Counted from the stretch's first letter, positions 24,745-43,463 are shown. The stretch: 64,000 bases of DNA from Candidatus Peribacteria bacterium (GCA_003483925.1 DMXL01000007.1:30504-94503); one strand, 5' to 3'. A program made the numbers and translations. The notes: a model not told the origin generated them from the sequence alone.

Positions 24745-24747
24745 ATC

Positions 24748-24860: not shown

Positions 24861-24886
24861 ACAACCTCAGCGGAGGTTGTTTTTTG
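24861..24886 (+). terminator. Attenuator terminator 1
   Basis: ACAACCTC-agcg-GAGGTTGT followed by a T-run. The left arm can alternatively pair with GAGGTT at 24839-24844. Confidence 0.65.
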
Positions 24887-24908
24887 TATTCCTTCCCCCT
24901 TTCTTTCT

Positions 24909-24953: not shown

Positions 24954-24981
24954 TCAGGTCGAGGTTTCGTGATCAAGAACT

Positions 24982-25009
24982 GCAACCTCGGCCTCGGGGT
25001 TGTTTTTTT
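24982..25009 (+). terminator. Attenuator terminator 2
   Basis: GCAACCTCG-gcct-CGGGGTTG followed by T7. The left arm can alternatively pair with GAGGTT at 24961-24966. Confidence 0.65.
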
Positions 25010-25032
25010 ATATTCCCTTTCCCATCTTCCCC

Positions 25033-26109: not shown

Positions 26110-26122
26110 ACGGCGCCACCAG

Positions 26123-26156
26123 AAACAACCGCTTCGCGACAGAGGCGGTTGTTTTT
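26123..26156. terminator. Bidirectional terminator between asd and the convergent TPR gene
   Basis: AAACAACCGC-ttcgcgacagag-GCGGTTGTTT followed by tt. It overlaps the TAA stop of the minus-strand gene. Confidence 0.6.
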
Positions 26157-27626: not shown

Positions 27627-27714
27627 GAGGGCTAAGGTTAGGGTTAGGGTTAGGGATGAGGTTACACTGCTGAGATAGTTTCCCTAATCCTAACCCTAAT
27701 GCCTAACCCTAAAT
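27627..27714. repeat. Inverted clusters of telomere-like hexamers (TTAGGG)n / (CCCTAA)n
   Basis: The left arm reads gagggctaaggttagggttagggttagggatgaggtta, the spacer is 17 nt, and the right arm reads ccctaatcctaaccctaatgcctaaccctaaat. The right arm overlaps the TAG stop (27709-27711) of the ATPase gene. Confidence 0.8.
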
Positions 27715-29952
27715 AATCGGTTCTTCAAATTTCTCCTCAATCTCCGCAATCTCCCCCTCCTTGGGCGCTTCGCTCGCCGCTTCGTCCCACTTCTTAAGCA
27801 TCTCCTCCACCTTCTTCTTCGGCTGGCAGTACTTCTTGCGGGAGAGCTCGATGATTTCCCGCGTGTGATCCTCCGCCGGCTTCGGCACATCGACCGTGCG
27901 TCCGGAGAAGGCTTCGCGGATCTCCCCCTTCACGGACATCTTCACGTAGAACTCCCGAACGCCGAGATTGATGATGTCGCGCTCTTTGAAGATCGGCTCG
28001 TACTCCTTCTCAAGAACCGCAGCATCCTCGGCCCCGACGCGGAAGCTGATCATGGATCCGACATTACCGAAAACCGTCTGGCGGATCCTCGAAGAGAGCT
28101 GCCCCATGTACTGATGGGCAATCGTGAGATTGAGATGATACTTGCGGGCCTCGGAGAGAATCTCATAGAACGTATCGGTCGCGAAGTTCTGGAATTCATC
28201 GACGTAGAAGTAGAAATCCGGCCGCTGCTCCTCCTCCACACTCGCACGGCTCATCGCCGCCTGGTACATCTTCGTGATGATCATCGAACCGAGAAGTGAG
28301 GAGTTTTCCTCTCCAAGGAGCCCTTTGGAGACTTTCATGAGTAGGATCTTCTTCTGATCCATGACTTCGCGGATGTCGAACCGGGTCGTGGGCTGCCCGA
28401 TGATGTTGCGGATCATATTCGTCGCGACGAACTGGCCGACTTTGTTGAGAAGCGGCGTGATGGCTTCGGAGTCGAACTTCTCGGACCACGCGGCGAACTC
28501 GGACACCCAGAAGCTCTTCACGACGTTGTCCTGGATACGCGCAACGATCTTCTGACGGTAGTTCTTGTCATTGAGCATCTTCAGGATCGAGAGAACCGTC
28601 GTGTTCGGGCTGTCAAGGAGCGCCAGCGTGGTGTAGCGAAGCACGTGCTCGAGACGGTACGACCAGTTGTCCCCGAAGAGCTTCTTGAAGATATCGAGGA
28701 AACCGATGGTGAGCTGCATCTTGTACGCCTCGTCGACTTTGGCGAGCGGATTGAAAGCGATGGGGAACTCCGTATCTCCAGGGTCGAAGAGGATCACATC
28801 GTCGATGCGATTTTTGGGGACGTGCCGCAGCACGCAATCCACCAGATCTCCGTGCGGATCGAGCACCGCCACTCCCCTGCCGCGATCCAGATCCTCCTTG
28901 ATGAGCAGCTCCAGGAGCTTGCTTTTCCCCACGCCCGATTTGCCGACGACGTACAGGTGGCGCCTGCGGTCTTCGAGACGCACGCCGAATCGCACGAAAT
29001 TGTTGTGGTAATTGGTGATGCCAAAGGTGCTCACGTCTTTCTCGCCCGTCCGCGGCAAGTCCTGCGGGGGGTCGGACTTGCGTGCGAGAACGTGGACGAT
29101 GTGGTGCACGTGATCGGTGTTGGGAAGGTGGTAGAGCGTCGCCGTCTCCTTCGCGCTCAGAATGTACGTCTTCGCATGCTCCCGTGCCCGATACTTCTGG
29201 AGGAATCCTGCCGACTCCGTCGCCCGCGTCGCCGTGAAGCCGTTGACGTCCGAATCATTGAAATGGTAGAAGCTGTTATTCACGGCTTCGATCTTGCGAA
29301 CGGCTTCGTCGAAGCTCCGCGAGAGGAACGCGCAGCGGATCGATACCCTGAAGGGCTTGGTCTTCTCCTTCTCCTTCGCGATCTCGTAGCGAACGGCCTG
29401 GATGCCCCTGCGGCCCTCCTTACGCAGACGATCGCGGATGGAGAAGAACTTTTTGAGGTTCGCGAGCTTGAAACGCACGCTCCTGAGGAAATGATACAAC
29501 GCATTGTCCGCGTGCGGTTCCACGATGATCTGGACCCACACCTGCTCCCCGCTCTCGATCTTCGAGATCACCGAGAAGAGACGGGACATGCTGTCTTCCT
29601 CGAAGCGGTCGTAGGTCTTCACCGGATACACGTCCCTCTCCTTCAACCTCAACTCGCACCCCGCGAAGTGGTGCTTCGAAGGATCGAACGCGGCCGCGTA
29701 ATCCTTCGTTTCCCGGATTTCCGCATCGGGAAAGGTGGCATAGATGAGACCTTCAATCGTTTCCACGTATTTCTCATCCATCACCACGTAGAAATACGTG
29801 TACTGTTCGTACCCAAGATACTCGAAAGAGAACCGTTCCTCCGTCACGGTGTTACGCAAGCTCACGAGCAGATCCTGGAATTTCGACTCCAGTTTTTTGT
29901 TGTCTTTCGTTCCCTGCGGCACGACGATGTGGAGGAAGTGCAGCTTGGTCAT
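27709..29952 (-). CDS. Soluble VirD4/TraD-like (TraM-recognition-type) P-loop ATPase
   Basis: 747 aa. Walker A is VVGKSGVGKSKLLE and Walker B is FYFYVDEFQNF. AHQYMGQL..FGNVGSMISFRVGAEDA resembles type IV coupling protein or DUF87-type ATPases. I see no N-terminal TM helices. Confidence 0.65.
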   Translation of the reverse strand: MTKLHFLHIVVPQGTKDNKKLESKFQDLLVSLRNTVTEERFSFEYLGYEQYTYFYVVMDEKYVETIEGLIYATFPDAEIRETKDYAAAFDPSKHHFAGCELRLKERDVYPVKTYDRFEEDSMSRLFSVISKIESGEQVWVQIIVEPHADNALYHFLRSVRFKLANLKKFFSIRDRLRKEGRRGIQAVRYEIAKEKEKTKPFRVSIRCAFLSRSFDEAVRKIEAVNNSFYHFNDSDVNGFTATRATESAGFLQKYRAREHAKTYILSAKETATLYHLPNTDHVHHIVHVLARKSDPPQDLPRTGEKDVSTFGITNYHNNFVRFGVRLEDRRRHLYVVGKSGVGKSKLLELLIKEDLDRGRGVAVLDPHGDLVDCVLRHVPKNRIDDVILFDPGDTEFPIAFNPLAKVDEAYKMQLTIGFLDIFKKLFGDNWSYRLEHVLRYTTLALLDSPNTTVLSILKMLNDKNYRQKIVARIQDNVVKSFWVSEFAAWSEKFDSEAITPLLNKVGQFVATNMIRNIIGQPTTRFDIREVMDQKKILLMKVSKGLLGEENSSLLGSMIITKMYQAAMSRASVEEEQRPDFYFYVDEFQNFATDTFYEILSEARKYHLNLTIAHQYMGQLSSRIRQTVFGNVGSMISFRVGAEDAAVLEKEYEPIFKERDIINLGVREFYVKMSVKGEIREAFSGRTVDVPKPAEDHTREIIELSRKKYCQPKKKVEEMLKKWDEAASEAPKEGEIAEIEEKFEEPII

Positions 29953-30053: not shown

Positions 30054-31727
30054 TCAATACACCTCCTTCCGGTAGCAATTCTCGCAGTAGATCTGCATCT
30101 CCGTATCCGCGGGGTAGCTCGTGACCATGGGGACGGAACACTTCGCGCACAAGCCTTCGCGCAGCTTCCACGGGTTCTGCTCGCGAGAACGCCGTAGGTG
30201 GCGGCAGTCCGGGCAAGAGTCCGGGAGAGGGATGCGGCGCGCGCGATATACGGCGAGCTCTTGGGGAACGATCTTGTAATTCTTCCCACACTCTTCGCAC
30301 ACGAGCACGCTTTCCATCGCGTCGTTCGCAACCTGATCGATCGCATCGGGCACCCGGTACGTCTGCGCGCGGGGTACGCGCGGCTCGGGCGGGTGCCAGC
30401 GATAGCCGAGTTCCTTCGCCTGCTCTTCCATAAGCGGGAAACGCTCCATCGCTGCGGTCTCGTTGTACGCAAATGGCGCGCAGGAAGCCGGGAAGAATTC
30501 TCCCCATTCACCGTTCACTCTCATGGCCGCGATGATCCGTGGCACGAGGCGCTCGTATTCGTCTTTCGTATACTGCTTGTTCAGGATGCAGTACTGGCTG
30601 CGGCGGAGCCCGATGCATCCGAAAATGTCTTTTGAAGCGGTGATGAAAAAGGAGTAGTGCACGCGCTGGCACCCCGACGTGCGCAGACAGAAGCTCGTGC
30701 CGTACGACGCCGCGACGGATGTGGTTTCGTAGATGAGCTCACTGTCCCTCCCGCCGGTATAAGCGTCCATGGCATCCCGATACAGGTTCACGTCGTAGAG
30801 ATACCGTCCGTCCACGGAATCGAATGCTCCGTAACATTGCAGACAGTTCTTGCAACGGAAGAGATTGTCACCGGTGACGTTCTCGCACTGGATGTTCATG
30901 AGATTGCGGCGAATCGCCTTGCGCCGGATCCCGCGGTACATGCTCTCAGCCATCTTCACCATCTTGCGGGAGCCGAAGTCGAACTCCCGAAGCTTTGCTT
31001 CATATGCATCCTTCGTGAGTTGCTCGTTGAGGAAGTAGTATCGCTTCCCGCGGAGATTGCTGCACATGAAGCAGTCCAAGCAATTGCGACAGTCCAGGAG
31101 AAACGCACAGTTTGCGCAGTCGCTGCAGAAGAAGAGGTAGCGGCTGTCAGTGCAGTTCATGCATTCCACGCACTCGTAAAGGAAGGATGATTTCTTCACC
31201 TGCGTACAATCCGTGCAATCGGAGCTCCGACTCCCGCGGTAGGTGTAGAGCATGTCCTGGGATTGATGTGTACGCGCGCAGAGGTAGCAATTCTTGCTTT
31301 CGCGCACGTCGCTGTTGAACTCGCAGTTCTCCGAGAGCTCCACGCGCAGCGATGGGAGCGGGATCGCGAGCGCGAAGCTCCGGAATTGATCGAAGAACGG
31401 GCGCGCAGCATCGTATGGACGTCCGTATGCAAGCGGATCGAAGGCATCGGAGAACCAGTGGTTCTTCTCACAGACTTTGTGAGGAGAGTCGGGAGAGAAC
31501 ACCGAGATGATGTCCTGTCCCGTGACATCGCATTTTCGCCGGTAGAGCTGCCGCTCGTTTCGAAAGCTCATCCTCCTTCGCTGCCGACAGTCGGGGCACA
31601 GGGTCGGTGGCGGGATGAGCTCCTTCTTCCCGGCGAAGACAGGCGAAACTCTCTCGAGGAACGTGAGGTCGTCCTCCGTGACATCGAAGGGGGCACGGCA
31701 CCAAGAGTTCAAGCAAATCTTCTGCAT
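30054..31727 (-). CDS. Cys-rich array paralogue G1 (uncharacterised zinc-ribbon/Cys-ladder family)
   Basis: 557 aa. The N-terminus reads MQKICLNSWCRAPFDV..PPPTLCPDCRQRRR..YRRKCDVTGQDII. A Cys ladder follows. The C-terminal module keeps all Cys (VCEECGKNYKI..CPDCRH..CAKC..YCENCYRKEVY*). Confidence 0.85.
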   Translation of the reverse strand: MQKICLNSWCRAPFDVTEDDLTFLERVSPVFAGKKELIPPPTLCPDCRQRRRMSFRNERQLYRRKCDVTGQDIISVFSPDSPHKVCEKNHWFSDAFDPLAYGRPYDAARPFFDQFRSFALAIPLPSLRVELSENCEFNSDVRESKNCYLCARTHQSQDMLYTYRGSRSSDCTDCTQVKKSSFLYECVECMNCTDSRYLFFCSDCANCAFLLDCRNCLDCFMCSNLRGKRYYFLNEQLTKDAYEAKLREFDFGSRKMVKMAESMYRGIRRKAIRRNLMNIQCENVTGDNLFRCKNCLQCYGAFDSVDGRYLYDVNLYRDAMDAYTGGRDSELIYETTSVAASYGTSFCLRTSGCQRVHYSFFITASKDIFGCIGLRRSQYCILNKQYTKDEYERLVPRIIAAMRVNGEWGEFFPASCAPFAYNETAAMERFPLMEEQAKELGYRWHPPEPRVPRAQTYRVPDAIDQVANDAMESVLVCEECGKNYKIVPQELAVYRARRIPLPDSCPDCRHLRRSREQNPWKLREGLCAKCSVPMVTSYPADTEMQIYCENCYRKEVY

Positions 31728-31799
31728 ACGCTGATTCTAGCAAGGGATGAGGGGCATGTAGTACGTATTATGAGAGATTGGTTCTCCTGCCCATACCCC
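31728..31799 (-). promoter_or_regulatory. Array junction cassette with extended -10 (TGCTAGAAT) for G1
   Basis: Reverse complement of 31734-31742 is TGCTAGAAT, 6 nt from the ATG. The cassette contains the shared string gaggggcatgtagtacgtattatg. Confidence 0.5.
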
Positions 31800-31910
31800 T
31801 TACTACACCTCTTTGAGGTAGCACTCCTCGCCCATTCGACTCCGTCTCGCTGCGCTCGCCTCCGCTCAGGGTGAATCGTGTTGTAAGCGAAAGAGGAATT
31901 GAGTTGATAT
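31800..31910 (-). repeat. REP-like core plus ghost gene terminus downstream of G2
   Basis: The minus strand after the G2 stop reads ..CACGATTCACCCTGAGCGGAGGCGAGCGCAGCGAGACGGAGTCGA-ATGGGCGAGGAGTGCTACCTCAAAGAGGTGTAGTAA. This gives a degenerate second copy of the family C-terminus (MGEECYLKEV**). Confidence 0.7.
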
Positions 31911-33611
31911 TCAGTATACTTCTTTCAGATAACACGATTCGCAGTACACAATTTCCGGTCTCTCGGGCGCATAGGTCGTCTCCATTGACTTGCCGCACTT
32001 CGCACACGCACGCTTCCAGAGCTTGCGTGGATTGCGTAAGGCCCTGCGTGCGGCATGGCGCACTTCGAAATGCCGGCGCGGGAGAGGCACATGCAGTTTT
32101 CGATAGAGACCAAGCTCGCTCGGCTGGATTTTGAATAGTTTCCCGGATACCTCGCAGCGGATGGCCCACTGGAGCACATCATCGGGAACGGCATCGATCG
32201 TTTCGGGAAGACGATCGCCAGAGACCACCTTTGTGACAGATGGCATTTCCTCGCGCATCTCGCGCCACCGCCATCCGCGTTTCTTCACCTCCTCCTTCGT
32301 GAGCGGATAGTAATCCTGAGCGACGGTTTCGTTGTACGAAAAGGCGGAGAGCGTGGGAGGGAAAAACTCTCCCCATGTCCCCTCTTTTCGCATCTGTTCA
32401 ATAATCTTCGGAGTCAATCGTCCGTATTCTTCTTCCGTGTACTGCGTATTCAGAATGCAGTGCCGCATCTTCTTCAAGCCCACGCAGCCGAAACAATCGT
32501 TGGCACCCTGGAGACAGTAGATGGAGTAGCAGAGATTCGAGACACCGAACGACTGGTAGTAGCAACAAATGAGCCGTTCGACGCCCGCTCCCACGTAGGC
32601 GCAGTTGTACACGAGGTTCATCTTGTCACCCCATGCGTCGACGTCCTGCGCGTCCGATCCGCCCATCATGCAGTTCGTGCAATGACGACAATCGCGCATG
32701 TCCATGCAATCGTAGGAATCATGCATGTTCTTGCAGGAGATGAGGTTGTCGCCCGTTACCTCTTCACTCATCACCGTACGAGTGGCTTTGCGCGGGTATC
32801 TGAGGAAAAGAGCCTCCGCTTGCGCACGCAGCGCCTCCACGCCGGCATGCGTGTGAAGGGCGAATGCCGCCTTCCGGAGAGCGAACTCCTCCTTGGAAAC
32901 CGGCTCATTGAAGATATGATACTCCTTCTGGTGCAGATTCACGCACCCGATGCAGTTCCGGCAACTTGAGCAATCAAGGAGGAACGCGCTATCCGAGCAG
33001 TTGCTACAGAAGCGCGAATACAGCAGATGAAAACACTCCTGGCAGTGGATGCACTCGTAACAGAGCTCGCACTGCTTGAGGCTGTAGAAATCGCAACAAT
33101 CCTTGAGGAGCGCGTAGACTTCGCCATAGTAGGAGTCCTGCGCCTGCTCCCCGTCAAAGATCAGGTAACAGTTCTGCAGACGGTATCCGTCGTGTGCGTA
33201 GTCGCTGTTGATGTTGTCAGTGAGCGCGAGGATGGAGATTTTCGGGACGGCGTACCACAGATCGCGGAATTGATCGAAGAACGGGCGCGAGAAATCGTAC
33301 GCCCTACCGAAGGAAAGAGGATCCCAGTTATCCCCCCACCAGCACGCAGGACAGAAGACGGTAAAGGGGGAATCGGCAGGATAGATGGCGATGATGCGCT
33401 TCTTGCAATGATCGCACACACGCGGGTACAGCGTCCGTTCATTGCGCATGGCCAACCTTCTCTGCTGACGGCAGTCGAGGCAAAAGGCGGGGGGAGGAAC
33501 GGATTCTTTCTTTCTATTGAATACAGGAGAGATCTTGTCATAGAACGCAAGATCATCCTGCGCGATCTCGAAGGCGGAAGCGCACCACGGGTTGGCGCAG
33601 ATTTTCTGCAT
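31911..33611 (-). CDS. Cys-rich array paralogue G2
   Basis: 566 aa. It starts MQKICANPWCASAFEI..PPPAFCLDCRQQRR, contains CFGCVGLKKMRHCILNTQYTEEEY, and ends CAKCGKSMETTYAPERPEIVYCESCYLKEVY*. Confidence 0.85.
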   Translation of the reverse strand: MQKICANPWCASAFEIAQDDLAFYDKISPVFNRKKESVPPPAFCLDCRQQRRLAMRNERTLYPRVCDHCKKRIIAIYPADSPFTVFCPACWWGDNWDPLSFGRAYDFSRPFFDQFRDLWYAVPKISILALTDNINSDYAHDGYRLQNCYLIFDGEQAQDSYYGEVYALLKDCCDFYSLKQCELCYECIHCQECFHLLYSRFCSNCSDSAFLLDCSSCRNCIGCVNLHQKEYHIFNEPVSKEEFALRKAAFALHTHAGVEALRAQAEALFLRYPRKATRTVMSEEVTGDNLISCKNMHDSYDCMDMRDCRHCTNCMMGGSDAQDVDAWGDKMNLVYNCAYVGAGVERLICCYYQSFGVSNLCYSIYCLQGANDCFGCVGLKKMRHCILNTQYTEEEYGRLTPKIIEQMRKEGTWGEFFPPTLSAFSYNETVAQDYYPLTKEEVKKRGWRWREMREEMPSVTKVVSGDRLPETIDAVPDDVLQWAIRCEVSGKLFKIQPSELGLYRKLHVPLPRRHFEVRHAARRALRNPRKLWKRACAKCGKSMETTYAPERPEIVYCESCYLKEVY

Positions 33612-33659: not shown

Positions 33660-33770
33660 TCAATAAACCTCTTTGAGATAGCAATCTTCGCCCATTCGAC
33701 TCCGTCTCGCTGCGCTCGCCTCCGCTCAGGGTGAATCGTGCTGTAAGCGAAAGGGGAATTGGGTTGATAT
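33660..33770 (-). repeat. REP-like core plus ghost gene terminus downstream of G3
   Basis: This is the same 111-nt element as 31800..31910. It ends ..GGAGTCGA-ATGGGCGAAGATTGCTATCTCAAAGAGGTTTATTGA (MGEDCYLKEVY*). Confidence 0.7.
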
Positions 33771-35453
33771 TCAGTATACTTCTTTCAGATAACACGATTC
33801 GCAGTAGACAATTTCCGGCCGATCCGGGGCATAGGTTGTCTCCATCTCCTTGCCGCACTTCGCGCACGCGCGCTTCCAGAGCTTGCGGGGATTCCTTTGA
33901 GCCATCAGCCTGCGATGGCGTTCGTCGGGGTGGAAATGGGAAACGGGAAGCCGCATCTTCCGGTAGAAATCCAGCTCCTGCTTGATGACCCTGAAGGGAC
34001 GCCCCGTGGCTTCGCACTTGATCACCCAGTTCAAGATGTCATCGGGGACATCGTCGATGGAGTCCGGCAGCTTCCGGGCGGGAATCACTTTGTCCGCCTT
34101 CGGCATATCGTCGCGCTCCTCCTTCCATCTCCATCCCCTCTTCTCCGCGTCTTGCTTCGTGAGAGGGAAGAAATCAGAGGCAACGGAGTCGTTGTAGGCG
34201 TAGAGGCTCCTCTCGACGGGAAAGAACTCACCATACTCCTGGGTTTTACGCATATGTTCAATGATCTTCGGTACGAGCGTCTCGTACTCCTCCTTGGAAT
34301 ATTGCTTGTTCAAGATGCAATGTTTTCCTCGCGCATGCAGCCCGTCGCATCCGAAGCAGTCGGATTGGTAGAAGCAGGAGCTTAAGTAGAGGGAGCGCGG
34401 GGAGGCGATGGTGCAATAGCTGAAGCGCGTGAGGTAGTTCTTCTCTCCGCCGGAGGACATCTCGTAACAGAGCTCGATATCCTTGTCGTGTGAGGCCAAG
34501 TCCATGGAATCTTTGACTCCTTCGCACTCGAAGATGTACGAGGAATCCTCGACATTGAAGCAGTCGGAGCAATTCATGGCGTTGCGACAGTTGGAGAGGT
34601 ACGTTCCCGTGGACCCCTCGCAATTGAGCTGGATCTGCGCCCGCTTGGGGACGGTCACGTCGAAGGCGGCGAATTCCGCCTGAAGATCTTCCGGAGAAGT
34701 TTGCCGGTACTGCCGGAGGATGTCCGCATAGGCTTCTTCCGTGAGCTGCTCATTTTTGAAGCAGTACTGCTTGTTACGGATCCCACTGCACATGAAACAG
34801 TCTTTGGCGTTGGTACAATCTCGTAAGTAGTTTGAGAACGAGCATTGACGACAGTTCACGAGGTGATGCGCAGAATTGCAGCCGTCGCAGTTGGTGCTCT
34901 CCGCAACAAGCTCGCATCGGTTGAGCACATTGGAGTTGGCGCAGTCGCGACAGTACTGACTCTTGCGCAGGTAATAGCAATCTTCCACGAAATAACTCCC
35001 CGGACAGAGGTACGCGTTCTTGCTGAAGGCGAGGAGGAGATTATATTCGCAGTTCTCGTTATTCAGCTGGAGAGCGGCCGCCTGCGGCACCGTGTGCTGG
35101 AGCTCCTCGAATTGCTGGAAGAATGGCTTGGAGAAATCGAAATCTCTGCCGTAGTCCATCGGGTCCCAACGATCCGACCACCAGCAATCCGTGCAGTACA
35201 CCGTGTACGGGCTCTCGGGAGCGAAGGAGGAAATGGTCGTTTTCTTGCAGAGACCGCAGGTATGCCTGTAAATGCTATGTTCATTGCGAAACGCGTGCCT
35301 CCGTTGCAGCCGGCAATCGGGACAGAGGGTAGGAGGCGGAATAAGGAATTTCTTCCTGCCGAAGGCCGGTGAAATTTTCTCGTAAAACTTCAAGTCATCA
35401 TCGGTGACCTTGAAGGGGGCACGACACCAAGAGTTCAAGCAAATCTTCTGCAT
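33771..35453 (-). CDS. Cys-rich array paralogue G3
   Basis: 560 aa. It starts MQKICLNSWCRAPFKV, contains CFGCDGLHARGKHCILNKQYSKEEYE, and ends ..HFHPDERHRR..CAKCGKEMETTYAPDRPEIVYCESCYLKEVY*. Confidence 0.85.
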   Translation of the reverse strand: MQKICLNSWCRAPFKVTDDDLKFYEKISPAFGRKKFLIPPPTLCPDCRLQRRHAFRNEHSIYRHTCGLCKKTTISSFAPESPYTVYCTDCWWSDRWDPMDYGRDFDFSKPFFQQFEELQHTVPQAAALQLNNENCEYNLLLAFSKNAYLCPGSYFVEDCYYLRKSQYCRDCANSNVLNRCELVAESTNCDGCNSAHHLVNCRQCSFSNYLRDCTNAKDCFMCSGIRNKQYCFKNEQLTEEAYADILRQYRQTSPEDLQAEFAAFDVTVPKRAQIQLNCEGSTGTYLSNCRNAMNCSDCFNVEDSSYIFECEGVKDSMDLASHDKDIELCYEMSSGGEKNYLTRFSYCTIASPRSLYLSSCFYQSDCFGCDGLHARGKHCILNKQYSKEEYETLVPKIIEHMRKTQEYGEFFPVERSLYAYNDSVASDFFPLTKQDAEKRGWRWKEERDDMPKADKVIPARKLPDSIDDVPDDILNWVIKCEATGRPFRVIKQELDFYRKMRLPVSHFHPDERHRRLMAQRNPRKLWKRACAKCGKEMETTYAPDRPEIVYCESCYLKEVY

Positions 35454-35551
35454 ACGCTGATTCTAGCAAGGAATGAGGGGCATGTAGTACGTATTATGTA
35501 TTATGGGATATGGGATTGGTTCTCCTGCCCATACCCCTTACTACATACCCC
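35454..35551 (-). promoter_or_regulatory. Array junction cassette: structured spacer plus extended -10 (TGCTAGAAT) for G3
   Basis: The -10 is the reverse complement of 35460-35468, 6 nt from the ATG. A 14-bp inverted repeat pairs aggggcatgtagta (35476-35489) with tactacatacccct (35539-35552). It encloses an inner gggatatggg/cccatacccc hairpin. Confidence 0.55.
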
Positions 35552-37231
35552 TTAATACACCTCTTTGAGGTAGCACTCTTCACAGAAAACTATTTCAGGG
35601 CGTTCTGGCGAGTATGTCGTCTCGATCCCCTTCCCGCACTTGGCACATGTCCGGCTCCAGAGGTGGCGAGGATTGCGCAGCTGCATGCGACGACGATGCC
35701 GGCAATCGTGACAGGATGAAGGAATCGGCAAGAGCATCTCCCGATAGAAGCGAAGTTCCTGAGGGATGATCTTGAAATTTCTCCCGCACGTTGCGCAGGC
35801 GAGGGTCTCCTGCAAGATGTCATCCTTGACCGTGCGGATGTCTGGGGGAACCGCGTGTTTGTTGGAAGAGAACCCCCTCTCCTCCATTTCCTTCCATCGC
35901 CATTTTCGCTTGAGGATTTCACCTTTGGTGAGGGGGAAATACTCCTGCGCGACAGACTCGTTGTAGGCGAATGGAGAGCGAGCGGCAGGGAGAAACTCCC
36001 CCCACGTACCGTCCTTGACCATCTGCTCAATGATTTTCTGAGCCAGCTTCTCATACTCTTCTTTCGTGTATTGCTTGTTGAGGATGCAGTAACGCTTGTG
36101 CTTGAGACTGATGCAGCCGAAGAGATCCGCGGAATTATTGTGGCAGCAGTCGCTGTAGAGAAGATCTCTCCCCTCCGCGCAGATGTGGCAGAAGAGGAGG
36201 TGGTATCCCGCCATTCCCGCGTGCAGCTCGTAATTGAGCTGGCTCTGCACCAGCCAGCCGTGCTCGTAGGTGTCCATGGAGTCTTTGTTCTTCCCTGAAT
36301 CGTAAATGTACGCGCTGTCTTCCACGTCACGGCAGTTGAAGCAGTGCTTCACGTTCTTGCAGTTGTAGAGATCGTCTCCGGACACAGAAGTGCAGTTGAT
36401 CTGCAACGCGAAACGGTGCGGGAATGTCAGCTTGAACGCACGCCACTTCTCTGCGAAGGCGGCGAATGCTTCGGGGGAAGTGAGGAGCTCTTCCTTCACG
36501 CGCGCATACTCCTGCGCGGACACAGGTTGATTGAAGATGTGGAGTTCCTTCTGCCGTAGCCCTACGCAGCCGATGCACCGCTCGCACCCCTTGCACTCGT
36601 AGCAGAAGAGACTGTCACGACAATTCTGGCAGGATTGAGAAAAGGCTGTCCCGTAACAGTGCAAGCAGTACGAACAGTCGTAGCATCGCTCGCAATATTC
36701 GCAGTACATCGAGTCCACCACGTTCTTGCTCTCCAGCACCCAGTGACCGTAGTAGCAGTCCTCGCACTTGCCGAGCGCCACGCCCATGTAGCAGTTCTTA
36801 TTGTTCGCGGAATGGCTCGTGTAGATGCAGTTCTCGCTGTGCAGGTTGAAGAGGTAGAGGCGGGGAACACGCATTCGTAGCTCGGCAACCTGTTCGAGAA
36901 ATGGCCGCGTGAAATCGACGTCCGTCCCGTACTCCAGCGCATCCCATTGATCCCCCCACCAGCATTCGTAGCAATAGACGGCGTACGGGGAATCCGGCGC
37001 GTACATGGACACGATAGATTTCCCGCACCGATCACAGGTATCCCGGTACAGATTACGCTCATTGCGCCATGCAAGCCGGCGGCGCTGCCTGCAATCGGGG
37101 CAGAGTGTCGGAGGAGGAATCTCGTACTTCTTGCCGCCAACGCTGGGAGAGAGCTCGTCCAAGAGCGCAAGATCACTCTGTGTGACCTCGAAGGGGGCAC
37201 GGCACCAAGAGTTCAAGCAAATCTTCTGCAT
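35552..37231 (-). CDS. Cys-rich array paralogue G4
   Basis: 559 aa with 43 Cys by my count. It starts MQKICLNSWCRAPFEV. The C-terminal module keeps its Cys (CATCGRNFKI..SCHDCRH..CAKCGK..FCEECYLKEVY*). Confidence 0.85.
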   Translation of the reverse strand: MQKICLNSWCRAPFEVTQSDLALLDELSPSVGGKKYEIPPPTLCPDCRQRRRLAWRNERNLYRDTCDRCGKSIVSMYAPDSPYAVYCYECWWGDQWDALEYGTDVDFTRPFLEQVAELRMRVPRLYLFNLHSENCIYTSHSANNKNCYMGVALGKCEDCYYGHWVLESKNVVDSMYCEYCERCYDCSYCLHCYGTAFSQSCQNCRDSLFCYECKGCERCIGCVGLRQKELHIFNQPVSAQEYARVKEELLTSPEAFAAFAEKWRAFKLTFPHRFALQINCTSVSGDDLYNCKNVKHCFNCRDVEDSAYIYDSGKNKDSMDTYEHGWLVQSQLNYELHAGMAGYHLLFCHICAEGRDLLYSDCCHNNSADLFGCISLKHKRYCILNKQYTKEEYEKLAQKIIEQMVKDGTWGEFLPAARSPFAYNESVAQEYFPLTKGEILKRKWRWKEMEERGFSSNKHAVPPDIRTVKDDILQETLACATCGRNFKIIPQELRFYREMLLPIPSSCHDCRHRRRMQLRNPRHLWSRTCAKCGKGIETTYSPERPEIVFCEECYLKEVY

Positions 37232-37329
37232 ACGCTGATTCTAGCAAGGGACGAGGGGCATGTAGTACGTATTATGTATTATGGGATATGGGATTGGTTC
37301 TCCTGCCCATACCCCTTACTACATACCCC
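37232..37329 (-). promoter_or_regulatory. Array junction cassette plus extended -10 (TGCTAGAAT) for G4
   Basis: Nearly identical to 35454..35551. The -10 is the reverse complement of 37238-37246. Confidence 0.55.
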
Positions 37330-38979
37330 TTAATACACCTCTTTGAGGTAGCACTCTTCACACAGGATTCTGCCGTCATACTCCGTCGGCCAGCTTGTCT
37401 GAGTCCCCTTCCGACACTTCCCGCACGCCACTTCTCGCAAGGTCCCGTCGAAGGGGATCAGGCGGAAATTCTCCTGCAGCCGGCGCATGTAGTACGTAGA
37501 GGGAAGCGGCGAGCCGAGATCTTTTGCGAACGCGATGTCCGCCTCGGCGATCTGGAACGGGCGCCGGGCCACGGAGTCCCAAAAGACTTTCTTCGAAAGA
37601 TCATCGGTGGATGCGTCGCTGCGGTCCGGCACGAGGGAAGCTTCGAGAGTGTCCACCGTTCGTTCCTCTCTCTCCTCTCGCATCCGGAAGCCCTTCCCTC
37701 TCCCCTGTTCCTTCGAGAGAGGCCAGTGAAAGCCCGCTAAGCTCTCCTCGTACGGATTCGCGGCGAAGTGCGCGGGGAAGAATTTTCCGTACTCACCACT
37801 ATACTTCATCATCGCAATGATTGCTGCTTTCTTCTTCTCGTACTCCTCCGGCTCATGGGGCGTATTGAAGATGTGATACTTCTTTTTGACGAGCCCGCAA
37901 CAGCCGAAACAATGCTGGCACTGGAAGCAGTGGGCGCAGTACTCCAGGAACTTGCACTGAATGAGGCCGTAACCGAAGCGGACAGAGTAACATTTATCGA
38001 GAGCGGAGGAGCTCATGTACACCAGCTCGTCCTCGTAGAAGTTCACGCAATCCAAACAGTCTTTGGAGTGCACACCTCCGCGAATGCAGTGAATGCAATC
38101 CTCGACATCCTGCGTCGCAAAAAAGCAATTGATACTCCGCCTGCATCCGTCGAGGTAATTCCCCGTTGCGTCCTCCGAAAGGTCGATCAGGAGCGCGCGA
38201 TGCCAGGCACGGGTCCGGAGCATGTCCAGAAATTCTCTACGCGCTTTTTCATACGTGTTCCGCGAGCGAAAATCGAACTCTCTTGCCCTCCGCAGGTATT
38301 CTTCCTCCGTGTACTGCTGATTACGAATACAGTACTGCTTGTTCCGAAGGTTACTGCAGAGAATGCAGCGGTTGCAGTTGCGGCAATCATAGAGAAAAGC
38401 GCTGTCACTGCACTGTCTGCAATGTAACGTGAAGAGCGCCCGGAAGCAGAAAAAGGAGAATATACAATCGAGGGTGCGCTGCGAATCGCACGAGAAGACG
38501 CTGAATTGGGAATCCTTGACCCTCAACATGCGGAAGCAGTAGCGAAGATTCTCGTCCTTGACGCCGGAGTGGCTGAGATAGCAGTTCCGGGAGTACCACC
38601 AGTCATCCGTGTACTCGCAATTCTCGTTCCCCGCTCCCAGATTGTGCGGGATGGGACAGCGACGGAAGAGTTCCCACATCTGAGGGAAGAGCGGCTTGCG
38701 AAGATCGATCTCGGCCGAAGGCGGATCCGCGTGCTTGATCCACTCGTCCTTGTGCCACACGGGATAAGGACAATCCTGAGAGAAGACGGAGATGATCTGC
38801 TTGCCCGTCTTATCGCATGTGCGCTTGTGGAGCGCCCAGTGTTGCCAGAAGGCGCCGAGGATCTGCCAGCGTGCGATGGGACTTACGTCCGGCTCGCCTT
38901 CGACCCCCAATTTCTTGCGCAGTGCCATCTCGGCGGACGAAACTTCGAAGGTACGACCGGTGACGGGGCAGGTGGGCAT
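37330..38979 (-). CDS. Cys-rich array paralogue G5 (CPVTGRTF subfamily)
   Basis: 549 aa. It starts MPTCPVTGRTFEVSSAEMALRKKLG, so the first N-terminal ribbon is replaced. It ends ..CGKCRKGTQTSWPTEYDGRILCEECYLKEVY*. It begins 7 nt after the G6 stop. Confidence 0.85.
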   Translation of the reverse strand: MPTCPVTGRTFEVSSAEMALRKKLGVEGEPDVSPIARWQILGAFWQHWALHKRTCDKTGKQIISVFSQDCPYPVWHKDEWIKHADPPSAEIDLRKPLFPQMWELFRRCPIPHNLGAGNENCEYTDDWWYSRNCYLSHSGVKDENLRYCFRMLRVKDSQFSVFSCDSQRTLDCIFSFFCFRALFTLHCRQCSDSAFLYDCRNCNRCILCSNLRNKQYCIRNQQYTEEEYLRRAREFDFRSRNTYEKARREFLDMLRTRAWHRALLIDLSEDATGNYLDGCRRSINCFFATQDVEDCIHCIRGGVHSKDCLDCVNFYEDELVYMSSSALDKCYSVRFGYGLIQCKFLEYCAHCFQCQHCFGCCGLVKKKYHIFNTPHEPEEYEKKKAAIIAMMKYSGEYGKFFPAHFAANPYEESLAGFHWPLSKEQGRGKGFRMREEREERTVDTLEASLVPDRSDASTDDLSKKVFWDSVARRPFQIAEADIAFAKDLGSPLPSTYYMRRLQENFRLIPFDGTLREVACGKCRKGTQTSWPTEYDGRILCEECYLKEVY

Positions 38980-38986: not shown

Positions 38987-40693
38987 TCAGTATACCTCCT
39001 TCAGATAGCATTCCTCGCACAGAATCCTCCCGTCATACTCCGTCGGCCAGCTTGTCTGAGTCCTCTTCCGACACTTCCCGCACGCCACTTCTCGCAAGAT
39101 CCCGTCGAAGGGGATCAGGCGGAAATTCTCCTGCAGCCGACGCATGTAGTACGTAGAGGGAAGTGGAACCTTCAGATCCTGTGCGAAAGCGACGTCCTCC
39201 TTGAGAATCTGAAAGGGGCGAGAAGCGGCTGCATCCCAGTACGGCGTCTTCGTCACCCCTCGACTCGTCCCGCCTCCGCGGGACTCGCTCAGGGTCTGCG
39301 CAAATTGCTCGGCGGCTTCGTCCGCCTGATCGCTTCGATCAGGAACCTCGGAAGAATCCCGCGTATCGGCCTCTCGCTTTTCGTCCCCTTCATGCATCCG
39401 AAATCCCCTCTTCCCCCCTTCCTCCGTCGTCAACGGCCAGTAGAAGCCAGCCAGACTCTCCTCGTACGGATTCGCGGCGAAGTGCGCGGGAAAGAATGTT
39501 CCATACTCGCGACTGCTCTTCATGGCCGCGATGATTTCCCCTTTCTTCTTCTCATACTCCTCCGGCTCATAGGGCTTGTTGAAGATGTAATAGTTCTTCC
39601 CCACTAAGCCGCAGCACCCGAAACAGTGCTGGCATTGGAAACAGTGGGCGCAGTACTCCATGAACTTGCACTGAATCAGGTTGTATCCAAACTTCACGTC
39701 GTAGGAATTATCCTGCACAATCGAGGAGCAATACTGGAGTTCCGACTTGTACGGGCTTATGCAATCCAGTGCATCACGCGTGATGTGGGTGCGAAGAATA
39801 TTCACGCAATCCTCACTTCCTCCCGACATGAAATGACAATTCTCACAATCTTTACATTCATCCAGGTAATTCCCAGACGAGTTTTGTGAACGATCAATGA
39901 AGAGAGCGCGATGCCAGGCGCTCTTTCGAAGCATCTTGAAAAACTCTGTCTTCGCCTGCTCGTAGACAGAACGTGAATGAAAATCCCAGGCTGCAACACG
40001 CTTCTCATACTCCTCTTTGGTAATCTGTTGATTGGCGAAACAATACGATTTATTGCGAAGATTTGTGCAGAACATGCAATGTTGGCAATTACGACAGTCA
40101 TAGAGAAATGCGCTGTCACTGCATTGCCAGCAGTTGAAGGAGAAAAGGACCTGAAAACATTCATGGGAATTGATGAGGTCCACACATCGCTCACTCTTAA
40201 AAGAATACGTGCAGTACTGTGCCGTACGTATCGTATCGATGCGATAGCAGTAGCGAAGGTCTTCGGACAGAACTCCGGAATGGCAGAGATGGCAGTTCTT
40301 GCTGTACCACCAGTCATCGGTGTACTCGCAATTCTCGTTCCCCGCACCCACGTTGTGTGCGATGGGACAGCGACGGAAGAGCTCCCACATCTGAGGAAAG
40401 AGCGGCTTGCGAAGATCGATCTCGGCCGAAGGCGGATCGGCGTGCTTGATCCACTCGTCCTTGTGCCACACGGGATAGGGGCAATCCTGAGAAAAGACGG
40501 AGATGATCTGCTTGCCCGTCTTATCGCATGTGCGCTTGTGGAGCGCCCAGTGCTGCCAGAAGGCGCCGAGGATCTGCCAGCGTACGATGGGACTTACGTC
40601 CGGCTCGCCTTCGATACCCAGTTTCTTGCGCAGTGCCATCTCGGCGGACGAAACTTCGAAGGTACGACCGGTGACGGGGCAAGTCTTCTGCAT
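38987..40693 (-). CDS. Cys-rich array paralogue G6 (CPVTGRTF subfamily)
   Basis: 568 aa. It starts MQKTCPVTGRTFEVSS. Its first ~130 aa and last ~50 aa are nearly identical to G5, while the middle is diverged. Confidence 0.85.
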   Translation of the reverse strand: MQKTCPVTGRTFEVSSAEMALRKKLGIEGEPDVSPIVRWQILGAFWQHWALHKRTCDKTGKQIISVFSQDCPYPVWHKDEWIKHADPPSAEIDLRKPLFPQMWELFRRCPIAHNVGAGNENCEYTDDWWYSKNCHLCHSGVLSEDLRYCYRIDTIRTAQYCTYSFKSERCVDLINSHECFQVLFSFNCWQCSDSAFLYDCRNCQHCMFCTNLRNKSYCFANQQITKEEYEKRVAAWDFHSRSVYEQAKTEFFKMLRKSAWHRALFIDRSQNSSGNYLDECKDCENCHFMSGGSEDCVNILRTHITRDALDCISPYKSELQYCSSIVQDNSYDVKFGYNLIQCKFMEYCAHCFQCQHCFGCCGLVGKNYYIFNKPYEPEEYEKKKGEIIAAMKSSREYGTFFPAHFAANPYEESLAGFYWPLTTEEGGKRGFRMHEGDEKREADTRDSSEVPDRSDQADEAAEQFAQTLSESRGGGTSRGVTKTPYWDAAASRPFQILKEDVAFAQDLKVPLPSTYYMRRLQENFRLIPFDGILREVACGKCRKRTQTSWPTEYDGRILCEECYLKEVY

Positions 40694-40775
40694 ACTCTGA
40701 TCCTAGCAAGGAATGAGGGGCATGTAGTACGTATTATGTATTGGAATATGGGATTGGTTCTCCTGCCCATACCCC
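40694..40775 (-). promoter_or_regulatory. Array junction cassette (short variant) plus extended -10 (TGCTAGGAT) for G6
   Basis: Reverse complement of 40700-40708 is TGCTAGGAT, 6 nt from the ATG. The shared gaggggcatgtagtacgtattatg string is present. Confidence 0.5.
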
Positions 40776-42485
40776 TTAATACACCTCTTTCAGGTAGCAC
40801 TCCTCGCAATACACGATTTCCGCCCTTTCTGGAGCATAAGTTGTTTCAATCGGTTTCGCGCATTTCATACACTTCCGGCTCCAGAGCTTGCGTGGGTTAC
40901 GCAGCATCATGCGGCGGCGGTGACGCTCGTCGGGGTGGAAGTGCGGAACGGGAAGGCGGTGAAAGCGATAGAACTCGAGTTCCTTCTTCACGATCCTGAA
41001 GGGGCGTCCGGCTTGCCCTGAGCCTGTCGAAGGGTCGCCCCCTTCCGACAAAACCGCCCACTGGAGGACGTCATCGGGCACCGCGTCGATGCCGGCGGGC
41101 AAACTCTGCGCCGGAATGACCCTGGAAACTTGCGCGGCATCATCCGTCTCCTCGCGCCAGCCAAACCCCCGTGCCTGAGCCTCCTCACGCGTGAGCGGGA
41201 AATACACCTGCGCCGTCGTCTCGTTGTACGCAAACGGGGAGATCCCCGCCGGGAAAAATTCCCCCCACTCCCTCGTCTGCCGCATGTGCTCGATGATCTT
41301 CGATGCGAGCTTCTCGTACTCTTCTTTCGCGTACTGCTTGTTCAGGATGCAGTACTTCCCGGGCTTCATGCACACACACCCGCACATGTCCGATCCCGTC
41401 TGGACGATGTCGCAGTAGAGGAGGTTTCGAGAGCTCCAGGATCCGTGCGTGAAGATCGTATTGTAGGAGCCGTAGCCGAGGCTCAAGGACTCATACCCGA
41501 GTTGCGCATCCGTCGTGTGGCAGACGTCCAAGAGATCCTTGATCTGAAATCCCGTGAAGATGTAGGCACAATCCTCGCCGTACGAAACATCGAAACAGTG
41601 GCGAAGATTGCGCGAATCCTTGAGGTAATCCCCCGTCACGTTCTCGCAGCTCACCACCTCGCGCGCGCGGTGGATGCTCCGTTCCTTGAGACGGGAAAAT
41701 TCCTGCAACACGTCCTCAAGCTGCCCCTGCGCGACACGATCCATGATCTCCTTCTTGAGGCGTCGATACTCCTCCTGCGGATACTCCTTGTTGCGGATGT
41801 AGTTGCGCTTGTTTCGCAGATTCATGGAGAGCAGGCACTCGGTGCAGCCCTTGCAGTCGAAGAGGAAAGCGCTCGATGAGCAATTGGTGCAGTTCTGGCA
41901 GAAGAACGCCGTGTGGCACTTGTCGACGTCGACGGCTTCGTAGCAGTAGTGCGATTCGGTACAGTCGGACGTATCGGTACAGCCCGTGGACTTGATGACC
42001 TGATAGCCATAGAGACAATCCTCGTTGAACTCGGCGGCGAAGATGAGGTAGCAGTTCTTGTTCGACCCGGAGAGATTGATAAACTCGGAATTCTCGTTGT
42101 TGATCACGTTGAGCGCCAATCTCGGCACCGTGTTCTGCAGTTCTTTCACCTGATCAAAAAACGGACGGCTGAAATCCACTTCCCGCCCGTGGCTCAATGG
42201 ATCGTTGCGATCGGACCACCAGCACTCGGTGCAGTAGACGGGGAACGGACTGCCCGCCGGATACATGGAAATGATGGACTTCTTGCACGCATCACACGCG
42301 CGCCGGTAGAGGCTGCGCTCATTGCGCCAGAAAAGTCTGCGTTGCTGACGGCAGTCGTGACAGAGCGTCGGGGGCGGAATCGCATACTTCTTCCCGCCGA
42401 ATACCGGAAAAAGCTTATCGAGGAGGGCGAGGTCGTCTGAGGTGACCTCGAAACCCGACCGACACTGAGCACAGATCTTCTGCAT
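40776..42485 (-). CDS. Cys-rich array paralogue G7
   Basis: 569 aa. It starts MQKICAQCRSGFEVTSDDL..PPPTLCHDCRQQRR and ends ..HFHPDERHRRR..CMKCAKPIETTYAPERAEIVYCEECYLKEVY*. Confidence 0.85.
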   Translation of the reverse strand: MQKICAQCRSGFEVTSDDLALLDKLFPVFGGKKYAIPPPTLCHDCRQQRRLFWRNERSLYRRACDACKKSIISMYPAGSPFPVYCTECWWSDRNDPLSHGREVDFSRPFFDQVKELQNTVPRLALNVINNENSEFINLSGSNKNCYLIFAAEFNEDCLYGYQVIKSTGCTDTSDCTESHYCYEAVDVDKCHTAFFCQNCTNCSSSAFLFDCKGCTECLLSMNLRNKRNYIRNKEYPQEEYRRLKKEIMDRVAQGQLEDVLQEFSRLKERSIHRAREVVSCENVTGDYLKDSRNLRHCFDVSYGEDCAYIFTGFQIKDLLDVCHTTDAQLGYESLSLGYGSYNTIFTHGSWSSRNLLYCDIVQTGSDMCGCVCMKPGKYCILNKQYAKEEYEKLASKIIEHMRQTREWGEFFPAGISPFAYNETTAQVYFPLTREEAQARGFGWREETDDAAQVSRVIPAQSLPAGIDAVPDDVLQWAVLSEGGDPSTGSGQAGRPFRIVKKELEFYRFHRLPVPHFHPDERHRRRMMLRNPRKLWSRKCMKCAKPIETTYAPERAEIVYCEECYLKEVY

Positions 42486-43410: not shown

Positions 43411-43417
43411 CGCGAAC

Positions 43418-43445
43418 AGTATAGAGTAGGAAGAGAAGATGTAAA
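43418..43445 (-). promoter_or_regulatory. Candidate promoter of the embedded TrmB gene (TTTACA-N16-TATACT)
   Basis: Reverse complement of 43440-43445 is TTTACA and of 43418-43423 is TATACT. The ATG follows 7 nt later. Confidence 0.45.
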
Positions 43446-43463
43446 GAATATTTGTCAACCCGC

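Follow-up and report, generated by a model that had tools for sequence, protein, structure and literature searches.

A tandem array of proteins with predicted zinc modules at both ends and a predicted duplicated beta-solenoid core in Candidatus Peribacteria

The zf_Tbcl_2 motif CxxC-x17-CxxC (PF23477/TIGR04272) is a probable treble-clef zinc finger that defines an uncharacterised Pfam family. A second Pfam finger, zf_Tbcl (PF13451, formerly zf-trcl), follows CxxC-x-F-x-I-x3-(D/E)L-x-FY...P-x-P-x2-CP-x-CR. Among beta-solenoids, the antifreeze protein of Tenebrio molitor (TmAFP) has a 12-residue coil, TCTxSxxCxxAx, in which positions 2, 5, 8 and 11 point inward. Here we describe a gene family in which counterparts of both fingers appear to flank a Cys-rich core. 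The window analysed is a stretch of 64,000 nt from a Candidatus Peribacteria bacterium (GCA_003483925.1 DMXL01000007.1:30504-94503), with positions counted from its first letter. In the open reading frame (ORF) listing and its translation, the gene under study is a complete ORF of 560 codons encoding 38 Cys that fills 33771-35453 on the minus strand. We call it G3; it stands third in a set of 13 paralogs (G1-G13, 549-576 amino acids), all in one orientation, that occupy 30054-53921 on the minus strand, a run broken only by the gene for a TrmB-family regulator at 42616-43488. The paralogs share 30-47% identity, except for G5 and G6 (69%), and have a Cys content of 6-8%. Orthologs of G3 in other Peribacteraceae and Peregrinibacteria genomes are 60-83% identical, all of them labelled "hypothetical" or "zinc-ribbon domain containing".

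We propose that G3 is a cytoplasmic protein of about 560 amino acids that would have arisen by two nested internal duplications. Its termini would carry the same bipartite zinc module twice, with complementary degeneration thereafter, and its core would consist of two acidic beta-solenoids, the second of them followed by an aromatic segment (residues 391-445). We have high confidence in the structural statements taken as a whole, namely the predicted domain map, the Cys4 sites, the solenoid and the non-ligand role of the Cys ladder within it. The features of G3 and the evidence for each are as follows.

33771-35453, minus strand: the G3 paralog, 560 amino acids plus stop codon (ORF listing, translation, orthologs elsewhere).
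35298-35453, minus strand: N1 finger, residues 1-52, CxxxxC...CPDC, treble-clef type, ligands C5/C10/C44/C47 (homologous to C1; PF13451 matches in relatives).
35163-35297, minus strand: basic helix and N2 ribbon, residues 53-97, C66-x2-C69-x17-C87-x2-C90 (intact in G3; second PF23477 stretch of G3).
35064-35162, minus strand: helical connector, residues 98-130 (AlphaFold2 helices H98-101 and H111-121).
34728-35063, minus strand: predicted beta-solenoid block 1, residues 131-242, about nine 12-residue coils, terminating in CFMCSGIRNKQYCFKNEQLTEEAY (hhalign, AlphaFold2, periodicity).
34629-34727, minus strand: variable helical linker between the blocks, residues 243-275 (21% pairwise identity among paralogs; predicted local distance difference test score, pLDDT, 50-66).
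34284-34628, minus strand: predicted beta-solenoid block 2, residues 276-390, poorer in Cys, terminating in DCFGCDGLHARGKHCILNKQYSKEEY (homology to block 1).
34119-34283, minus strand: conserved aromatic-rich middle segment, residues 391-445, IIEHMRK..EYGEFFP..YAYNDSVA..FFPLTK..RGWRW (2.58 bits per column).
34044-34118, minus strand: variable charged linker, residues 446-470 (26% pairwise identity among paralogs).
33894-34043, minus strand: C1 finger, residues 471-520, degenerate in G3, with C480/T483/H508/E511 within SHFHPDERH (homologous to N1).
33774-33893, minus strand: C2 ribbon, residues 521-560, C530-x2-C533-x17-C551-x2-C554, tail CYLKEVY (PF23477; four Cys in 13/13 paralogs).

To compare the parts of the protein with one another, we divided the 13-paralog alignment into the N-terminal module, block 1, block 2 and the C-terminal module and aligned the profiles by hhalign. 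The first-pass annotation, made from the sequence by eye, had proposed that the same module stands at both ends and that the core is duplicated. Both proposals held. The two terminal modules are homologous (99.6%, E 1.1e-23, 78 aligned columns), as are blocks 1 and 2 (99.8%, E 9.7e-28, 111 columns). The core duplication had been recognised in G3, G4, G7 and G10; it is there in these copies but is not limited to them, being visible in 13/13. Within single sequences, composition-adjusted BLASTP gave E values of 1e-19 (G4) and 8e-14 (G3) for the N- against the C-terminal module, and BLASTP of block 1 against block 2 within G3 alone gave 9e-6.

Given a high Cys content and short, repetitive motifs, the apparent duplications could in principle be a compositional artefact of Cys-rich low complexity. 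Masking every Cys to X left E values of 2.7e-18 for the terminal modules and 4.1e-23 for the blocks. Sixty column shuffles of the partner profile scored at most 22, as against the observed 123 and 152. Control pairs that are equally Cys-rich, the N-terminal module with block 1 and the C-terminal module with block 2, gave a probability of only 0.2% (E ~0.3), and the composition-adjusted BLASTP result is likewise at odds with an artefact. We consider this explanation refuted and give it practically no weight. Missing profile homology and a Cys-composition artefact, the two outcomes that the first-pass annotation had itself set against its claim, were both examined and neither was found. Both duplications are real.

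Each terminal module consists of a treble-clef CxxC...CxxC finger, a basic helix and a CxxC-x17-CxxC ribbon. N1 and C1 form one homologous pair and N2 and C2 the other. We aligned 489 distinct family members to a hidden Markov model of the paralogs; the set was drawn from the 13 paralogs, from database matches and from the ORFs of 77 related loci. A complete set of four Cys occurs at N1 (C5, C10, C44, C47) in 423/489 members (87%) and at C2 (C530, C533, C551, C554) in 469/489 (96%), including 13/13 paralogs. The corresponding numbers are 192/489 (39%) for N2 (C66, C69, C87, C90) and 185/489 (38%) for C1 (positions 480, 483, 508, 511). The number of Cys per site is bimodal among these members, with sites kept or lost as whole units. 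At N2, the count is four in 192 members, two in a single member and one or zero in 296, with no member at three; if the four positions were independent, 124 members with three Cys would be expected. Covariation of columns within the terminal sites is correspondingly high (phi 0.73-1.00, with 1.00 at N2). The four terminal tetra-Cys sites are predicted to be cooperative metal sites, most likely for structural Zn.

The commonest combination of sites, in the order N1-N2-C1-C2, is +--+ (169/489), followed by ++++ (101/489). Since the broad family consensus retains all four tetra-Cys sites, the losses of fingers are derived. Among the paralogs, the N1 CxxC...CxxC pair is found in 11/13; G5 and G6 lack this first N-terminal finger (CTSA and CTSV, respectively). 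The second N-terminal ribbon, N2, is intact only in G2, G3, G4 and G7, and therefore the N-terminal module is as degenerate as the C-terminal one, in the other finger. G3 itself has N1, N2 and C2 intact and C1 altered. Given the homology of N1 with C1 and of N2 with C2, either type of finger is thus kept whole in one module and dispensable in the other. On this alignment, the pattern is one of complementary degeneration of the two modules after their duplication, with the outer N1 and C2 kept and the inner N2 and C1 dispensable.

Our table of ligands agrees with what had been read from the paralogs by eye. Loss of Cys ligands from the first C-terminal finger in most copies is confirmed by the alignment. 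A full 4-Cys finger is found there only in G1 and G4 among the 13 copies, the sequence H(F/L)HP(D/E)ER(H/Y) in G3, G7, G8, G9 and G10, and neither in G2, G11, G12 and G13; G5 and G6, which had been left out, also lack this finger. The last ribbon had been described as kept in every copy, and it has four Cys in 13/13.

The replacement at C1 (HFHPDERH in G3, with equivalents in G7-G10) is a discrete variant whose surrounding positions are well conserved. H508 and E511 occur together in 107/489 members, of which 97 have C480, 105 have Thr or Ser at 483 and 82 have His at 513; the full C/T/H/E variant is present in 84/489. Such a Cys/His/Glu arrangement could hold a metal with an open coordination position. 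It could be that C1 was turned into a conserved Cys/His/Glu centre in roughly one member in five, and this centre could be a catalytic rather than a structural metal site.

We also compared the fingers with known families. The spacing of PF23477/TIGR04272 is matched exactly by both N2 and C2 of G3, which scores 33.5 with PF23477 (cut-off 27) over two stretches; G4 (26.2) and G13 (17.7) are below the cut-off, as is the score with TIGR04272 (27.6; cut-off 36). Unlike in that family, the ribbon here makes up half of a larger bipartite module, of which the 560-amino acid protein has one copy at each end. N1 and C1 follow the pattern of PF13451, for which G4 scores 19.8 and G1 11.5 (cut-off 24) and G3 gives no match; precomputed matches to it exist in many homologs. 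A difference from PF13451 is that the C-terminal instance is without its Cys ligands in most copies. Resemblance to LIM domains is confined to G1 in Pfam (14.7, below the cut-off of 22.9) and to the last ribbon in the Protein Data Bank (PDB), where matches to CRP LIM domains have E ~1e-3. Searches of the PDB with a single sequence and two profiles returned these LIM-like matches to the last ribbon and non-significant ones to TmAFP and a CXXC domain. In scans of the full proteins with Pfam, NCBIfam and PADLOC, the terminal ribbons alone were matched, with no match for the core or the middle segment. Residues 391-445 have no sequence match in Pfam, NCBIfam or the PDB.

To examine the core, we built a full-length AlphaFold2 model of G3 with a 112-sequence alignment (pLDDT 89.4; predicted template modelling score 0.87). 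In this model, residues ~145-232 and 299-332 form runs of 4-residue strands with 2-residue turns at a spacing of six residues, and pLDDT exceeds 90 in block 1. Block 1 modelled by itself is almost wholly extended (pLDDT 84). Distances between Cys in block 1 are nearly all multiples of three, with 3172 pairs at lag 3 versus 53 at lag 2. Lag 12 gives the peak in the autocorrelation of the profile, both with Cys and after Cys is left out, and the DSSP string has two 4-residue strands per 12 residues. Together, these data indicate a 12-residue coil with small inward positions 1, 4, 7 and 10. We are confident that the core, as modelled, is made of two homologous beta-solenoids of 12-residue coils with two 4-residue strands each. 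The aromatic segment at 391-445 probably clasps the solenoids.

The Cys of this ladder behave differently from those of the terminal sites. They are 30-90% conserved among the 489 members, and Ser, Leu, Val, Ile or Ala takes their place one position at a time. In every coil register, the counts of Cys agree with statistical independence; for the most Cys-rich coil, members with 0, 1, 2, 3 and 4 Cys number 0, 1, 55, 167 and 266, against 0.2, 4.4, 43, 179 and 262 expected. Covariation between ladder columns (phi ≤0.57) does not exceed the background between unrelated columns, whereas values at the terminal sites are mostly 0.9-1.0. Being lost singly to Ser, Leu or Val, the ladder Cys are thus packing residues. 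With every third residue predicted to point inward and occupied by Cys, Ser or a small aliphatic residue, the ladder is best read as core packing and not as metal binding.

The alternative is that the core is a metal-binding knuckle stack for Zn, Fe or Cu and that the protein is a metal store, a sensor or a redox protein. This idea draws on the Cys content of 6-8%, on runs such as CxxCxxCxxCxxC, on coils with four Cys, among them the last coil of block 1 where each is conserved at 78-91%, and on a weak, non-significant match to a CXXC zinc-finger chain (4hp1, E 0.33). Ligands of a shared metal would be expected to be kept or lost together, as at the all-or-none terminal sites, but the ladder Cys are lost singly, with independent counts per coil and background covariation. 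Block 2 has also dispensed with most ladder Cys yet is clearly homologous to block 1, and the confident AlphaFold2 model is a beta-solenoid. The cooperative conservation that marks a Cys cluster of the CXXC-domain, metallothionein or rubredoxin-like kind is absent from the core. We therefore regard a knuckle stack as unlikely, and a role in metal storage, sensing or redox chemistry as improbable. The first-pass annotation had suggested a modular Zn scaffold and a choice between solenoid and knuckle stack to be settled by structure prediction. The modular part stands, with a predicted Zn module at both termini; a Zn scaffold in the core does not, since the ladder there behaves as solenoid packing, and the knuckle stack was not borne out by the model.

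We then compared the predicted solenoid with known ones. Foldseek searches with the full model against the PDB and BFVD, and with block 1 against the PDB, returned nothing at E ≤0.001 with a meaningful template modelling (TM) score. All matches, every one of them weak, were beta-helix proteins, and the viral library BFVD did no better. The best matches of the full model were left-handed beta-helices (GlmU, LpxA/LpxD, gamma-carbonic anhydrase), which share strand-turn units of six residues; however, E was no better than 2e-3 and TM was ≤0.25. The Hexapep family (PF00132) had no Pfam match at E ≤1, and the period here is 12 rather than 18, with inward positions at i/i+3 rather than i/i+4. For block 1, the matches were solenoids of the pentapeptide-repeat, CARP and bactofilin types, with E no better than 0.56. 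The top ones were pentapeptide-repeat DNA mimics (Qnr, MfpA), which are likewise acidic beta-solenoids, but with E of 0.56-0.94, TM ≤0.32, no 5-residue periodicity and no Pfam match to PF00805. TmAFP (1ezg) is similar in its 12-residue coil with a small residue or Cys inward at every third position, and a gapless profile alignment over 59 residues was obtained that is non-significant (E 2 and 8.7). By contrast with TmAFP, the family consensus has no TxT face, and TmAFP was not among the Foldseek matches. The intra-coil disulfides of TmAFP also have no parallel in covariation, as Cys pairs at lag 6 do not covary in the family, whose proteins are predicted to be cytoplasmic. The resemblance is, on these comparisons, an analogy of architecture and not membership. 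As modelled, the core is a beta-solenoid of the bacterial cytoplasm whose 12-residue, Cys-lined coil is without parallel among solved structures.

Conservation is not distributed as a simple contrast of ends and interior. Information content is highest in the C2 ribbon (2.70 bits per column), segment 391-445 (2.58) and the N1 finger (2.39), followed by block 1 (2.06) and block 2 (1.97), and is lowest in linkers 446-470 (1.42) and 243-275 (1.27). Within block 2, the cap (FGCxGLKxKxYCILNKQYxKEEY) reaches 3.4 bits per column, and in it C369 and C379 are 99% and 91% conserved. An earlier suggestion that the ends are constrained and the interior is free to vary is borne out for N1 and C2, but the inner N2 and C1 are each lost in ~60% of members. 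Nor is the interior free: the block-2 cap and segment 391-445 are among the most conserved parts, and only the two linkers are truly variable. The mean net charge is -4 and -7 for the solenoids, +2 for the N1 finger and +4 for the C1 finger. A hydrophobicity scan of the paralogs found no signal peptide or membrane segment, except for a hydrophobic 20-residue N-terminal extension ahead of the conserved start in the G13 ORF, which is probably spurious. With no segment of transmembrane strength, the protein is therefore cytoplasmic and soluble.

We surveyed 77 related loci from diverse genomes of the candidate phyla radiation (CPR), clustering all neighbouring ORFs within +/-10 kb of each without bias. 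Two or more copies of the family are present in 56/77 loci, with up to 10 in one locus, and 256/259 copies are co-oriented. Only two neighbours recur: a TrmB-family regulator of ~250 amino acids (34/77 loci) and a P-loop ATPase of ~747 amino acids (20/77 loci). Every remaining cluster is found in at most five of the 77 loci. The TrmB gene is usually divergent and upstream, lying within 500 nt upstream of a family copy in this orientation in 28 loci, and the ATPase gene is usually directly downstream and co-oriented. When loci were approached from ATPase homologs, an array with a divergent TrmB gene was directly upstream in 3/3, and two further look-ups agree. In the window, the genes concerned are as follows.

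42616-43488, minus strand: TrmB-family winged-helix regulator inside the array (PF01978, E 2.5e-8).
54049-54804, plus strand: second TrmB-family regulator, divergent from G13 (PF01978, E 3.4e-9).
27709-29952, minus strand: soluble VirD4/TraD/TraG-like P-loop ATPase, 747 amino acids, 101 nt downstream of G1 (Pfam matches).

The ATPase matches the nucleotide-binding and all-alpha domains of the type IV coupling proteins (T4CPs) VirD4, TraD and TraG (T4SS-DNA_transf 32, cut-off 20.1; TrwB_AAD_bind 26.1, cut-off 20.5). It also matches DUF87 and TraG-D_C, has an N-terminal DUF8128 region and carries the Walker A motif GKSGVGKS; the equivalog models TraD, CD1115 and CedD are matched far below their cut-offs. 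A sequence search of the PDB gave one spurious adiponectin line only. Unlike T4CPs, it has no membrane anchor, as no transmembrane helix was found (maximum Kyte-Doolittle value over 19 residues, 1.00), and there is no relaxase, VirB4 or channel gene nearby. Across Peribacteria and Peregrinibacteria it is 69-98% identical at 745-747 amino acids, and it is far more conserved than the genes of the array. A survey from 2025 counted 5,713 VirD4-like genes in 2,918 Patescibacteria genomes, with 148 near virB4, and its authors suggested that the orphan genes have been exapted for other functions (PMC12102498).

We propose that the protein would be a rigid acidic spacer rod with basic zinc-finger heads. 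It would serve the soluble VirD4/TraD-like ATPase, whose gene is the next one downstream of the array, as an adaptor or client. The co-located TrmB-type regulators would control expression of the array, and the 13 anciently diverged paralogs would supply different specificities for partners or cargo. As a whole, this explanation, a zinc-capped duplicated solenoid serving the ATPase, is somewhat favoured over the others taken together. Its functional part is more tentative: a link between the array proteins and the ATPase is possible but we would not presume it. The same caution applies to a so far unrecognised three-component system of a TrmB-type regulator, a diversified solenoid array and an FtsK/VirD4-family motor with the array proteins as its dedicated clients or adaptors, which is possible but less likely than not. 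If it did exist, its cargo in the life of an epibiont would be DNA or protein.

Several observations weigh against this proposal. No ATPase gene lies within +/-10 kb in 57/77 loci. In the window, a hairpin precedes the ATPase gene, which may have its own promoter, and what joins it to the array is synteny only. In the core, the Cys of the last coil of block 1 and the near-invariant C369 and C379 could form a site that would be compatible with the independence test. AlphaFold2 models no metals, and the 12-residue coil and the inward ladder are deduced from DSSP strings and the periodicity of the sequence.

The synteny with a T4CP-like ATPase can also be read in another way, namely that the array proteins are exported effectors that the ATPase recruits, perhaps via the invariant C-terminal tail CYLKEVY, and that are passed to the cell on which the epibiont lives. 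Once exported, their ladder Cys would be oxidised to disulfides that staple a 12-residue beta-helix, as in TmAFP. A multi-copy, diversified family in symbiotic CPR bacteria fits this, as do the inward residue at every third position of a 12-residue coil, the gapless though non-significant alignment with 1ezg and the conservation of the protein, which is highest in C2 and the extreme C-terminus. However, the proteins have no signal peptide or transmembrane segment, the ATPase is without the canonical membrane anchor, and no VirB4, VirB6 or other channel gene is among the recurrent neighbours of the 77 loci. There is no covariation between the Cys that would have to pair in disulfides. The paralogs are of long standing and evolve under purifying selection, not rapidly. 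Structural Zn fingers are, moreover, typical of intracellular proteins. That only 148 of the 5,713 Patescibacteria VirD4-like genes are near virB4, and that one cultured strain could do without its T4CP when growing as an epibiont, also count against export (PMC12102498). We judge it unlikely that these are effectors.

A third possibility is that the array proteins are stand-alone nucleic-acid-binding regulators or chaperones, in which case synteny with the ATPase would come from no more than regulation in common or retention by chance. The N1 and C1 fingers are basic, as are the linking helices (RRxxxRN.R), most arrays in the +/-10 kb view are without the ATPase, and the ATPase gene has a promoter-like site of its own and is far more conserved (69-98%) than the genes of the array. 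On the other hand, the array is directly upstream of the ATPase in the window as well as in the 3/3 loci and the two look-ups, and beyond TrmB there is no other conserved neighbour. A stand-alone role has, in our estimate, a low probability, similar to that of export.

We also considered two further identities for the locus. A defence system was rejected, as PADLOC anti-phage profiles gave no match for G3 or G4, with only generic mad8/HerA matches for the ATPase, and the paralogs are old and conserved. A mobile element was rejected because the ATPase is a highly conserved core gene of fixed length. The array is flanked by genes for DprA, aspartate-semialdehyde dehydrogenase and a tetratricopeptide-repeat protein (22589-27624) and by rpoA and secY (54831-63939), with short ORFs on the latter side that resemble a ribosomal-protein gene cluster. 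These are housekeeping genes, which places the array on the chromosome, with no obvious sign that it belongs to a mobile element.

An exhaustive profile search returned 5,795 cluster representatives at 50% identity, 2,455 of them at E ≤1e-30. Among the top 150 matches listed, nearly all have 540-580 amino acids and match from end to end. A scan with one genome per species confirmed at least 598 places, the best 80 of which are in Peribacteria, Peregrinibacteria, Gracilibacteria, Abawacabacteria and unclassified Patescibacteria bins. As far as these sequence searches reach, the family is large, unannotated and restricted to CPR bacteria of the Peregrinibacteria/Gracilibacteria type. The closest relatives of each paralog in other genomes are 56-86% identical, as compared with 41-47% for its nearest neighbour in the array. 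The paralogs are therefore old, individually conserved subfamilies and not a hypervariable cassette. In the literature and curated models we found no description of the family, and Pfam covers the terminal ribbons only. The Peribacteria genome paper reports Cys-rich proteins (Table S4, "14-gene cluster"), but these are large and extracellular, and we rejected their identity with this array.

Zinc ribbons and beta-solenoids are kinds of structure that are already known. What is new is the combination of nested duplications, a predicted cytoplasmic solenoid with 12-residue Cys-lined coils, complementary loss of fingers and synteny with an orphan T4CP-like ATPase. The domain map is now concrete, and predicted metal sites can be told apart from Cys that appear to be merely structural. 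The termini would provide a clean case of complementary degeneration following internal duplication. The genomes of CPR/Patescibacteria are tiny, yet ~24 kb is given here to 13 copies of one unannotated family. The synteny also turns the role of the orphan Patescibacteria VirD4-like ATPases (PMC12102498) into a testable question, that is, whether they are bound by the array proteins.

The genes of the array, all on the minus strand, are as follows.

30054-31727, minus strand: G1.
31911-33611, minus strand: G2.
33771-35453, minus strand: G3.
35552-37231, minus strand: G4.
37330-38979, minus strand: G5.
38987-40693, minus strand: G6.
40776-42485, minus strand: G7.
43464-45158, minus strand: G8.
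45241-46938, minus strand: G9.
47006-48694, minus strand: G10.
48764-50428, minus strand: G11.
50536-52215, minus strand: G12.
52191-53921, minus strand: G13.

G5 and G6, which are 7 nt apart and 69% identical, are the most degenerate copies, having lost N1, N2 and C1 and retained C2 alone. G6 has a 19-residue insertion just past linker 446-470, where the C-terminal module begins. Other genomes have orthologs of this Cys-poor subtype at 65-75% identity. The G12 ORF starts with GTG, eight codons upstream of the family-typical MQKTC, and overlaps the stop of G13 by 25 nt. The TTG start of the embedded TrmB ORF likewise overlaps the end of G8 by 25 nt (43464-43488).

Two intergenic elements recur in the array. 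The first, of ~82 nt, lies directly upstream of the ATG of G1, G3, G4, G6 and G8 on the minus strand (31728-31810, 35454-35551, 37232-37329, 40694-40775 and 45159-45240). The five copies are near-identical, sharing a 23-mer that occurs exactly five times versus zero expected; the proteins encoded on either side share only 30-47% identity. At its end the element reads ...CCTTGCTAGAATCAG(C/A)GT-ATG, and an extended -10-like sequence, TGCTAGAAT, stops 9 nt ahead of the start codon, with no Shine-Dalgarno sequence. This suggests that the copies act as per-gene promoters with leaders that are very short or missing. A scan for sigma-70 promoters and terminators showed no enrichment over shuffles, and the element was found in 0/80 related loci fetched. 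The second element follows the stop codons of G2, G3, G10, G11 and G12 on the minus strand (~31811-31910, 33660-33770, 46939-47005, 48695-48763 and 50429-50535). Its 3' part reads in frame ...G-E-E-C-Y-L-K-E-V-stop, a degenerate copy of the family 3' end CEECYLKEVY*. This element may be the footprint of unequal crossing-over or gene conversion inside the array.

Elsewhere in the window, an ORF of 3,672 codons (7123-18141, minus strand) has no Pfam match at E ≤0.001; very large proteins have been described from Peribacteria genomes (PMC4736985), and this may be another of them.

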